NCBI GenBank assembly: GCA_964016885.1
Contig: OZ024743.1
Coordinates: 162,068,001-162,132,000 of the forward strand
Source of the DNA: Eledone cirrhosa
Taxonomy: Eukaryota
Direction: 5' to 3'
DNA length: 64,000 nt
Positions 27,375 to 30,207 of this stretch are shown one piece after another. Within the stretch, counting starts at the first letter, position 1. Each line of letters starts with the position of its first letter. The position numbers were made by a program, and so were the translations under genes. Under the pieces are notes generated by a model that saw only the letters and a program-made list of their open reading frames with translations, had not been told where the DNA came from and made no database searches.

Positions 27375-27800
27375 ATTTCGTTTCTGAATTTGTTTAGCAA
27401 GATTCTTTATCTGAAAACGTGTGTTGTAACCGATATTGTTATACTTTGGGAGGGTCATGTTGCCAATAAGAAACACACGCACCAGTTGCTTTCACTTCAA
27501 TTTATTATAATGAATTTATAAATTTAGGAATTTATAAATTTCCGGTTGGTTGGTTGGTTCCACAACCAGATTGTTGTTTATATATTGTCAAAGTTCTTTC
27601 GTCACACATTCTGTGACCTCTTCAGTGACTGCAGATTCCTCTCTCTATTGCTGTGCCTCCCCCCCGCCCCGTCCCACGCCATCTTGCCCACCTGTGTGCT
27701 GTGTGCCCAGTCCGCGCATGCGCCACATCCGGGTCTCTGTGTGTGTCTATATTTGTTTATTTATTTGTTCATTTACATGTTACTGGTTGGTTGTCTGTTT
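27375..27800 (-). repeat. PLE pLTR copy A with intact hammerhead; segment ~27630-27750 is T>C hypermutated
   Basis: Alignment to the 9355 and 54553 copies. Confidence 0.85.
27587..27629 (-). ncRNA. Type I hammerhead ribozyme, intact
   Basis: gtca-CTGAAGA-ggtcac..gtgac-GAAA-gaac-TT-tgac. Confidence 0.8.
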
Positions 27801-28120
27801 AAATACAAACACACACAGACACCCGGATGCAACAAATGCGCGAACCAAGCACACAACACACACAAAAACAAGATGGCGCAGGACAGAACAACGGAGAGGT
27901 ACAAAAAAAGAAAAGAATCCCAGTCACCGAAGAGGCCACAGAATGTGCGACGAAAGAACCCCGACAACACACGAACAAGCGCCCGGCCGTGGAACCAACC
28001 AACAAAGCGGAAATTTATAAATTTCCAAATCCATAAATTTAATATATAACAAACTGAATCGAAAGCAACCGGTGTGTGTGCCCCCCATTGGCAACATGAC
28101 CCTCCCAAAGCACAACAATA
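27801..28120 (+). repeat. PLE pLTR copy B, inverted arm, T>C hypermutated
   Basis: For example aactttgacaatatatgaa becomes aaccccgacaacacacgaa relative to 54787-54805. Confidence 0.85.
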
Positions 28121-29101
28121 TATATATATATATATACATATATACATATATACATATATACATATATACATATACATATATATATACATATACATATATA
28201 TATATATATATACATATACATATATATACATAATATACATATACACATATACATATATATATACATATATATATATATATATATATATACATATACATAT
28301 ATACATATATATATACATATATATATACATATACATATATATATATATATACATATATATATACATATACATATATATATACATATATATATATACATAT
28401 ACATATATATATATATATATATATATATATATATATATATACATATATATATACATATATATATACACATATATATATACATATATACACATATATATAT
28501 ATATACATATACACACACAAATATATATATATACACATATATATATACATATATATACACATACATATATACACACATATATATATATATACATATATAT
28601 ATATATATATATATACACATATACACATATATATATATGCATATATATATATATATATACTTATATATATATATACGTATATATACGATATTAAATAAAT
28701 GGAATTTAGTTAAATGAACAATAATAACGCCTAGGGGTATTACTTCTACTACCACTATGACCACGACCACTAACAACAACAACAACAACAACAATAATAA
28801 TAATAATAAAAGTGATGTTGATGGTGCTGATTAATAGAAAATGCTATTTTCATCATTTCAAAAAGCAAAACAATTGATACGTTGGGTATGACTATTGGTC
28901 GTTAGCATGCTCAACCAGCCGTGACGCTTAAACCAATCAGCTGTAGTAATTCAGTGAAACTACACACTGATTGGTCGAAATACAGTTTACAGGGCTTTGC
29001 ATTCTGGAGCCACTTTTCTCTGTATAAAATGTATAAAAGGTAGTAAATTTACCCATCTCATTACAGTTGAAAATTGCAAACTCGACTGTCACCACATATC
29101 A

Positions 29102-29140
29102 TGAACCTGAAGATTGCGAAAGCATGAAAGTACTTGTTCA
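29102..29140 (+). ncRNA. Minimal hammerhead ribozyme with palindromic stem III, in a second pLTR family (copy ~29065-29302)
   Basis: tgaac-CTGAAGA-ttgcgaaagcat-GAAA-gtac-TT-gttca; second copy on minus at 48947-48985. Confidence 0.8.
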
Positions 29141-29337
29141 ATTAACACTTAGAATTTAATATTCTATCATACTATCTCATTATAATACCATATTATATAT
29201 ATTTTAAAGGATTGTAAATAAAACGAGTAAATCAGACAAAGTTGGAATTCCTCTTATTAATATAATCTTCTATACACAATCATACACACCCGTGTATATT
29301 TACCTATATATATATATATATATATATATATATATAT

Positions 29338-30207
29338 ATTTCGTTTCTGAATTTGTTTAGCAAGATTCTTTATCTGAAAACGTGTGTTGAAACCGATATT
29401 GCTATACTTTGGGAGGGGCACGTCGCCAACAAGAAACACACGCACCAGCCGCTCTCACCTCAATCCATTACAATAAACCCATAAACTTAGGAATCCACAA
29501 ACTGGCTGGCCGGCCCCACAACCAGACGGTTGCCCACATACTGTCAAAGTTCCCCCGCCACACTCCCGCGACCCCCTCAGCGACTGGGATCTCCCTTCCC
29601 TGCTTCTGCGCCTCACCCCTGCTCTGTCCCACGCCATCTTGTTTTTGTGTGTGTGCTGTGTGCCCAGCTCGCGCATGTGTTACATCCGGGTGTCTGTGTG
29701 TGTTTATATTCGTTTATTTATTTGTTTATTTACATGTTACTGGTTGGTTGTTTGTTCTATGTGCGTGTGTGTTTTCATTTTGTCCTTAATTGTAAGTTGT
29801 GATGTTGCTATTCTATTCATGTTTTCTATTTAATTTTGGTTGGAGTTCATTTATGTTTATTGCCTCTGTGATTTGTCTAAACATTGCGTCTTTTCTGTGT
29901 GTAGATTCTATTTTTATTTCTATGTTCTCTAATTTACCCTTATGTTCTATTTTAGCATGTTGGTAGAGTACAGATGATTCTTTACTATCTTGAAGCTCTC
30001 GCCAGTGTTCATTTATCCGTTCCCCTATACTACGAGCTGTCTCACCTATGTACACTATATTTTTATCTCTACATTGTCCTTCAGTACATCTTATGCTATA
30101 TACTACATTTCTAGTTTTACAGTTAATATGGGGGCTTAATTTACAGATTATGCATTTCTTATCTATACAGGGAGGTCTTTGAAAAGGGTATGTATTGCTA
30201 ATAAGTG
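29338..30207 (-). mobile_element. PLE 3' fragment (GIY-YIG plus pLTR copy C, hypermutated)
   Basis: NVVYSIRC..YIGETARSIGERINEH..RQITEA; pLTR homologous to 54553-54990. Confidence 0.88.

Follow-up and report, generated by a model that had tools for sequence, protein, structure and literature searches.

Among 235 pseudogene insertions that L1 produced in cultured human cells, 3 were described with clustered T>C changes in inverted Alus (PMC11702581). These changes were confined to inverted repeats of retrotransposed read-through RNA, as are those analyzed here, but that case comprises new somatic insertions, forced L1 expression and Alus, whereas ours involves Penelope elements at at least nine, likely inherited, loci of an invertebrate reference genome. 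A second parallel comes from avian retroviruses in which roughly half of an inverted repeat's adenosines were changed (reviewed in PMC12925331). They share with our copies that nearly half of inverted-repeat A was changed and that the changes were fixed through reverse transcription; they differ in being exogenous rather than host retrotransposons and, in the parts of that report considered here, come without a genomic source-and-copy pair. LTR retroelements that APOBEC edited and that became fixed in vertebrate genomes (PMC4866542, PMC2873906) likewise carry deaminase scars made during retrotransposition and retained in a reference genome. Those scars, however, are sense-strand G>A changes made on single-stranded cDNA of LTR elements and were reported to be lacking in 19 invertebrate genomes, while the changes described below are A>G, tied to a duplex and present on either element strand. 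A route from editing to DNA has been proposed (PMC10209271), without such cases in the parts of that paper considered here.

The elements concerned agree with described Penelope-like elements (PMC8557442, PMC11167929) in a C-terminal GIY-YIG, a pLTR, an optional tail and an inverted 5'-truncated partner, as well as in AT-rich or microsatellite targets and an internal start of reverse transcription. Their tail measures 47 nt or slightly more, against 30-40 in the Penelope-like elements of PMC8557442. The parts of the two reports considered here do not mention edited copies, and we found no report of inherited ADAR-edited Penelope copies in the open-licence literature.

Three altered pLTR copies at a Penelope locus

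The window is a 64,000-nucleotide stretch of the Eledone cirrhosa genome (C4:162068001-162132000 of a 3.0-Gb assembly). An earlier note on it, made from the letters alone, had singled out three neighboring pLTR copies that differ from unedited copies almost only by plus-strand T>C, and had attributed this difference to ADAR hyper-editing of a folded RNA. The features of the locus are listed below.

27280..27376, no strand: pure (TA)n array with 0 G and 1 C in 100 nt, the likely target for the insertion's 3' end
27377..27799, minus (sense): copy A, a tail-bearing pLTR, family positions 1-407, placed by alignment to the reference copy and family majority; unedited at 27377-27638, which contains a hammerhead-like core, and edited at 27639-27755
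27801..28121, plus: copy B, a tail-less pLTR, family positions 362-48, inverted relative to A and C; edited over its full length (27820-28113), with A>G on the minus strand, which is B's antisense
28118..28700, no strand: mixed TA array with 58 C versus 3 G, a skew in the editing direction
28709..29305, plus: unedited 5'-truncated copy of a second, young repeat family, of which the 3' end is present; 99% to siblings
29340..30208, minus: copy C, comprising tail, pLTR and the 3' end of the ORF, family positions 1-859, 5'-truncated at 30208; edited interval 29402-29670
29813..30208, minus: C-terminal GIY-YIG endonuclease part of the element ORF (PF01541), unedited
30290..30860, plus: right neighbor, a remnant of the 3' part of another LINE, bearing a (TAA)n tail
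54132..54990, plus: unedited reference copy of the same Penelope family, which over 859 positions shows 5 T>C and 6 A>G
9353..9716, no strand: unedited reference unit with two short inverted arms

Judging from its C-terminal GIY-YIG, pLTR, inverted 5'-truncated partner and optional tail, the family appears to be a Penelope-like element. PF01541 matches copy C with E 3.5e-05 and the reference copy with E 1.1e-04; the two hits adjoin the pLTR and exceed the curated cut-off. Fragment 52495-52995 gave no Pfam hit. Family copies sit in TA arrays and end at position 1 (with tail) or 48 (without); siblings of copy C extend beyond 30208, and 26 abutting inverted units were seen. Within the pLTR, a hammerhead-like core can be made out by eye. 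This core, with two stems, folds weakly in unedited copies (z about -1) and is intact in A and altered in B and C, while an Rfam scan of the reference pLTR returned no match at E 0.5. A comparison of marks assigned A and B to different subfamilies (0 marks shared and 13 different, a count inflated by edited columns), so that the two do not constitute an ordinary two-armed unit from one template.

Other retroelements in the window were recorded alongside. A LINE open frame of 969 aa with reverse transcriptase, apparently recent, occupies 33474-36383, with related fragments at 11891-14332 and 30290-30633; it carries what looks like a restriction-like endonuclease motif, as does the LINE fragment at 30290..30860, where no Pfam hit was obtained. 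A further Penelope-like ORF (6772-8827 and 11302-11907; 482 aa, with a GIY-YIG-like end by eye) has a 606-base inverted pair of 96.7% identity and was covered for edits by the all-against-all comparison described below, and another inverted pair (60770-61012 and 62113-62355; 243 bases, 97.5% identity) flanks a mixed microsatellite.

Pairwise alignment to the window copy at 54100-55010 gave plus-strand spectra of 28 T>C and 2 A>G for A, 27 and 2 for B, and 60 and 4 for C, bearing out the near-exclusive direction of change that had been claimed; the copy at 54132..54990 is, as also claimed, an unedited reference. For counts per site, the ruler was a family majority built from 47 further loci of the genome, leaving aside subfamily columns. 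In copy A, none of 69 T is changed in the stretch 48-247, which corresponds to about 27433-27638 of the window, as against 20 of 53 in 248-362 (27639-27755). Copy B has 26 of 57 changed, with four further changes in an indel region lost by projection. In copy C, 45 of 88 are changed at positions 48-290 and 3 of 30 at 291-362, against roughly 45-50 by hand alignment in the note, followed by 0/230 at positions 363-859, outside B's pairing reach, and 0/17 in the tail. Within the edited spans of the three copies, 38-51% of minus-strand A is now G. The opposite transition occurs at 0/58, 1/121 and 0/55 sites in A, B and C. In unedited copies, T>C stands at 178/32413 and A>G at 99/14698 (about 0.6%), against which binomial log10 p values are -31 for A, -40 for B and -60 for C (positions 48-247).

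Copy B is inverted and its changes fall on the opposite element strand, yet they lie on the same genomic strand as those of A and C, each copy showing minus-strand A>G, as the note had recognized. Its further statements that the change in C matches the span able to pair with B and that the flank of C is not hypermutated agree with the counts above; the dense change it reported at about 29402-29711 is real but stops at 29670. For A, editing of one part stands, whereas five apparent T>C (positions 316-332) proved to be shared subfamily variants. Part of A that is able to pair stays unedited, and no change is present in a short TA run (29305-29339) that the proposed RNA would include. The unrelated repeat had correctly been called free of hypermutation, with 3 private differences versus 19 siblings over 597 positions, one of them T>C, but begins at 28709 instead of 29065. 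It could represent the loop of a C:B duplex or a later insertion. Its family has 1718 candidates, and some siblings carry inverted partial partners, as in Penelope elements; no edited cluster was found in the siblings retrieved.

Neighbor preferences and further edited copies

Neighboring bases were pooled over 13 edited intervals and read on the inferred RNA strand. Editing affected 58/109 A residues after U, 140/270 after A, 59/183 after C and 35/125 after G, and 74/121 of those before a 3' G compared to 0.36-0.40 for other bases. Pooled p values are about 1e-6 for the 5' base, 4e-6 for the 3' G and 1.4e-6 for 5' G against U and A (35/125 versus 198/379, sites not being independent), all of them too small because the intervals were delimited with the changes already in view, some edited sites were fixed by two discovery patterns and hot sites are shared. 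For A, B and C alone, the 3' G bias has p 0.006, while the 5' G depletion (12/32 versus 86/185; p 0.23) is not significant; the shortage of edits at A preceded by G that the note had predicted is seen in the pool (35/125), with the reservations just given, but not in these three copies by themselves. Depletion of G 5' of the edited A was reported for hyper-editing across all metazoans, with an octopus 3' G preference weaker than in mammals and 20-25% G downstream (PMC5625713); here, 74/292 edited sites (25%) have G downstream. With one-strand polarity, confinement to pairing spans and neighbor bias, the proposed ADAR-type signature holds, and these patterns point to ADAR as the probable enzyme behind the changes in A, B and C. 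CpG decay was uninformative as a sign of age in DNA, with a weak background (40/1142) and edited TG->CA at 0/148.

Other copies of the family were scanned for clusters, defined as six or more like changes in 100 bases. Across 170 family-copy alignments, only T>C (13 rows) and A>G (5 rows) clusters occurred, with none of the ten other types. Five of the 18 rows are duplicates of window copies, leaving eight other loci (L013, L036, L040, L078, L080, L032 (= L110), L112 and L113), so that the strand-coherent clusters for which the note had proposed a scan do recur and are of A>G or T>C type only. L074 and L076, found via triple-change patterns, have small local clusters only and were not counted. 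An all-against-all comparison of 134 stretches (763,849 bases, 21 duplicate loci removed) scored 241,501 positions, each covered by four or more other copies. The 16 clusters it returned all belong to the Penelope family and comprise 10 of T>C and 6 of A>G, with 0 of the ten other types, although overall totals were comparable (C>T 738, G>A 689, T>C 745, A>G 714); one of the 16 (L039, six sites) consists of shared subfamily variants, and the sample is enriched through the searches that gathered it. G>A or C>T clusters, the APOBEC-type signature, numbered 0 in the 170 copies and in the 241,501 positions. Among loci chosen with unedited queries, a cluster was present in 1 of 29 (L013) and in 0 of 31, both sets being biased against edited copies. 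Most of the 26 abutting inverted units have no cluster.

Several of these loci differ in layout from the window locus. In the inverted arms of L032 (1105-1834), the sense-strand changes coincide: 25 sites are changed in both arms, 2 in a single arm and 10 in neither. The changes of the two arms are opposite in genomic direction; L112 (132-1744) is similar. Sharing of sense-strand changes between the L032 arms implies that they were copied after being made, and so both arms in L032 and L112 appear to have been copied from one edited template. L013/L138 has 71 T>C in the loop of the unit with no partner within the 9.9 kb retrieved, as expected if editing happened at the source. Strand-coherent hairpins were observed at L078:1128-1870 and L040:1497-2257, with an end copy clean over its 3' 130-220 bases and an edited antisense partner.

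A source-and-copy pair and the proposed origin of the window locus

For one of the eight loci, L080, both an edited copy and an unedited counterpart were located.

C19:14486944-14490990 (L135:2945-6990): edited copy, hairpin L080, A>G on one strand in both arms
C2:106387769-106391800 (L155, L157-L159): unedited source

The pattern across the L080 arm junction has one additional match only, the unedited C2:106391300, and copy and C2 source share private variants. In the 775-base hairpin, 41 of 41 substitutions between copy and source are A>G on one strand, including one at which the copy has the family base and which may be a later change in the source. Changed A residues amount to 19/56 and 22/65 in the two arms, compared to 0/48 in the loop and 0/24 in the tail, and a 407-base upstream piece common to source and copy contains one C>T difference. 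In the left TA array, G/(A+G) rises from 0.122 in the source to 0.246 in the copy. The copy starts inside the upstream element, continues with a 2-kb TA array, the hairpin and a second array, and there abuts a full copy of the element, with (GTAT)n on both sides. On the evidence of its sequence, this layout is that of a 5'-truncated retro-insertion of edited read-through RNA, and a very young one, for which the carrier seems to be a 600-base element ending on (GTAT)n or (TA)n rather than the Penelope hairpin. The source was left unedited. The route from RNA edit to heritable DNA suggested in the note is accordingly documented for this sister locus as retrocopying, with the change inherited only in the new copy.

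For the window locus, we consider it quite probable that an ADAR-edited read-through RNA was reverse-transcribed and inserted. A single minus-strand read-through RNA would have contained C at its 5' end, then the TA array with or without the spacer, then B, and A at its 3' end. It would have folded back, ADAR would have hyper-edited the paired spans of A, B and C, and the Penelope enzyme would likely have reverse-transcribed the edited RNA from the tail end of A, the cDNA then likely entering a TA array as a copy truncated at 30208. We infer the location of the three copies on one molecule, the start and end points of copying, and presence in the germline. The tail of A adjoins the pure TA array, and C breaks at 30208 against unrelated sequence, which are the two ends expected of an insertion; no target duplication is readable, the TA target being a microsatellite. 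Patterns for the A/B junction, the truncation of C and the truncation of the spacer (1-2 mismatches) match this locus only. Fixation as a retrocopy, one of the two outcomes considered in the note, thus has its precedent in the sister locus but no source elsewhere in the assembly, which leaves some weight with conversion in place, and the preference for a retrocopy here is argued from analogy and architecture.

Distribution of the changes along B is informative about the putative fold. In 40-nt bins, C has 4,7,9,8,10,8,4,0 changes and A has 0,0,0,0,0,9,9,4 (including shared subfamily C's), suggesting that C and A use their one partner B in a complementary manner, as in a three-way junction. The half-edited state of A might reflect competition of C and A for B in such a fold or an RT-bound 3' end that stays unedited, and both can hold. 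Ten edited end copies at nine loci have 0/256 changes at positions 48-130, whereas passenger copies are edited there (C 9/24, L080 sense arm 15/26, together 24/50); which copies initiated reverse transcription is presumed, except in L080. Protein binding might shield the 3' end, or solely RNAs with an unedited end might get copied. In vitro, a Penelope protein was reported to bind a 3' RNA region and to start internally at two tail-bounding sites, on both DNA strands (PMC11167929). A template switch within A at 27635 was rejected, as both halves bear marks of one subfamily.

The mixed TA array at 28118-28700 has possibly been edited as well. It lacks long exact repeats (20/60 shuffles reach its level), unlike four control arrays at three loci; against editing of the array, its gap sizes have peaks at 0, 2, 3 and 5 units, a pattern that slippage would give, and of 46 arrays located beside pLTR ends 15 are skewed.

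Several other explanations would produce a similar locus. Edited RNA of the locus itself might have been copied back in place, by cDNA-mediated or RNA-templated repair, over a tract from near 27635. This would fit the lack of a source in the assembly and the sharp left edge inside A (0/69, then 20/53), but the sole testable locus, L080, is a new copy with an untouched source, a one-haplotype assembly can miss a source, and the editing of C drops where that of A rises. Moreover, the unedited 3' end recurs (0/256, ten copies, nine loci), so the edge in A needs no conversion tract, and we regard conversion in place as unlikely. Still less probable is deamination of DNA, either by ADAR acting on the DNA of an RNA:DNA hybrid or by another enzyme on folded cDNA. 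According to work cited by PMC12925331 and PMC10209271, ADAR can edit the DNA of hybrids, and the end product would likewise be one-strand A>G; a hybrid, however, needs no inverted repeats, yet the change ends at paired arms (sister loop 0/48, C 0/230). In addition, the changed strand of the sister locus is the sense strand of the upstream element, which would be the RNA strand if that element drove transcription.

An assembly polished or gap-filled with edited RNA reads, or with miscalled hairpins, has a marginally lower probability in our estimate, and we think it very improbable. In its favor, the genomic evidence at the window locus is the assembly sequence. In a word search of genomic runs, the best run contained 0.34 of the words of edited C (threshold half). 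Four contig runs (<=2 samples) compared with 28700-30700 gave a coverage of 29504-29570 of 0 in three cases and 0.28 in the fourth; the private letters of the unedited neighbors at 29176 and 30384 were absent too, so the locus is not represented in these runs and they speak neither for nor against an artifact. Reads of a single transcript made at the locus cannot account for mirror-symmetric arms (L032, L112) or loop-only changes (L013). The sister copy lies at a chromosomal position of its own, its ends resemble those of an insertion and its source is clean; most abutting inverted units are clusterless, and a majority-of-reads process hardly yields complementary tracts in A and C. We give virtually no credence to the reading of the C-rich version as an ordinary diverged subfamily, even though edited copies share sites above chance (C with L032, p 0.002) and a genuine subfamily differs at positions 298-332 by five or six T>C. 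In the genome, 4513 exact matches were counted for an unedited 29-mer, compared to 4 (3 loci) for its triple-T>C form and 3 (3 loci) for its triple-A>G form, which answers the question of a genome-wide subfamily raised in the note and rules it out unless the assembly lacks a large number of near-identical C-type copies; for a second sense-edited pattern, the matches number 6, at 5 loci. Among 40 scored candidates each, the best other match reaches 83% for C and 86% for B, B is altered on the opposite element strand, and edited copies have differing subfamily backgrounds and differing edited intervals. The genuine subfamily, with its five or six T>C in 35 bases (298-332), was observed in L039, L043, L029, L003, the right arm of L032 and copy A. 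All its changes run in the editing direction, and its ancestor may have been a lightly edited founder that remained active.

Implications for inherited mutation and Penelope biology

If insertion of an edited read-through RNA is the correct reading, retrotransposition has turned RNA edits into inherited DNA within the genome of the animal itself, while in the literature searched, the precedents for a passage from edit to DNA were exogenous retroviruses and forced L1 activity in cultured cells only. This would not demonstrate edits written back into a source gene, and the edited copies described here are probably dead and neutral. Edited copies would distort repeat dating and can hide as 'non-edits' in RNA mapping.

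We lean toward a broader view, with somewhat more confidence than doubt, in which editing by ADAR continually supplies this genome with inherited mutations. In one Penelope family, perhaps 0.5-2% of copies, plus passengers of other retroelements, would be born from hyper-edited RNA, and their scars would be single-molecule records of germline folds and of the Penelope mechanism, including a three-way junction and a 3' stretch of at least 130 nt, the start region of reverse transcription, that is never edited. Each edited copy would preserve one germline RNA molecule with its strand, extent and fold. ADAR activity on germline repeat RNA, as well as the building of inverted units and the choice of template by Penelope elements, would thereby become testable from genomes.
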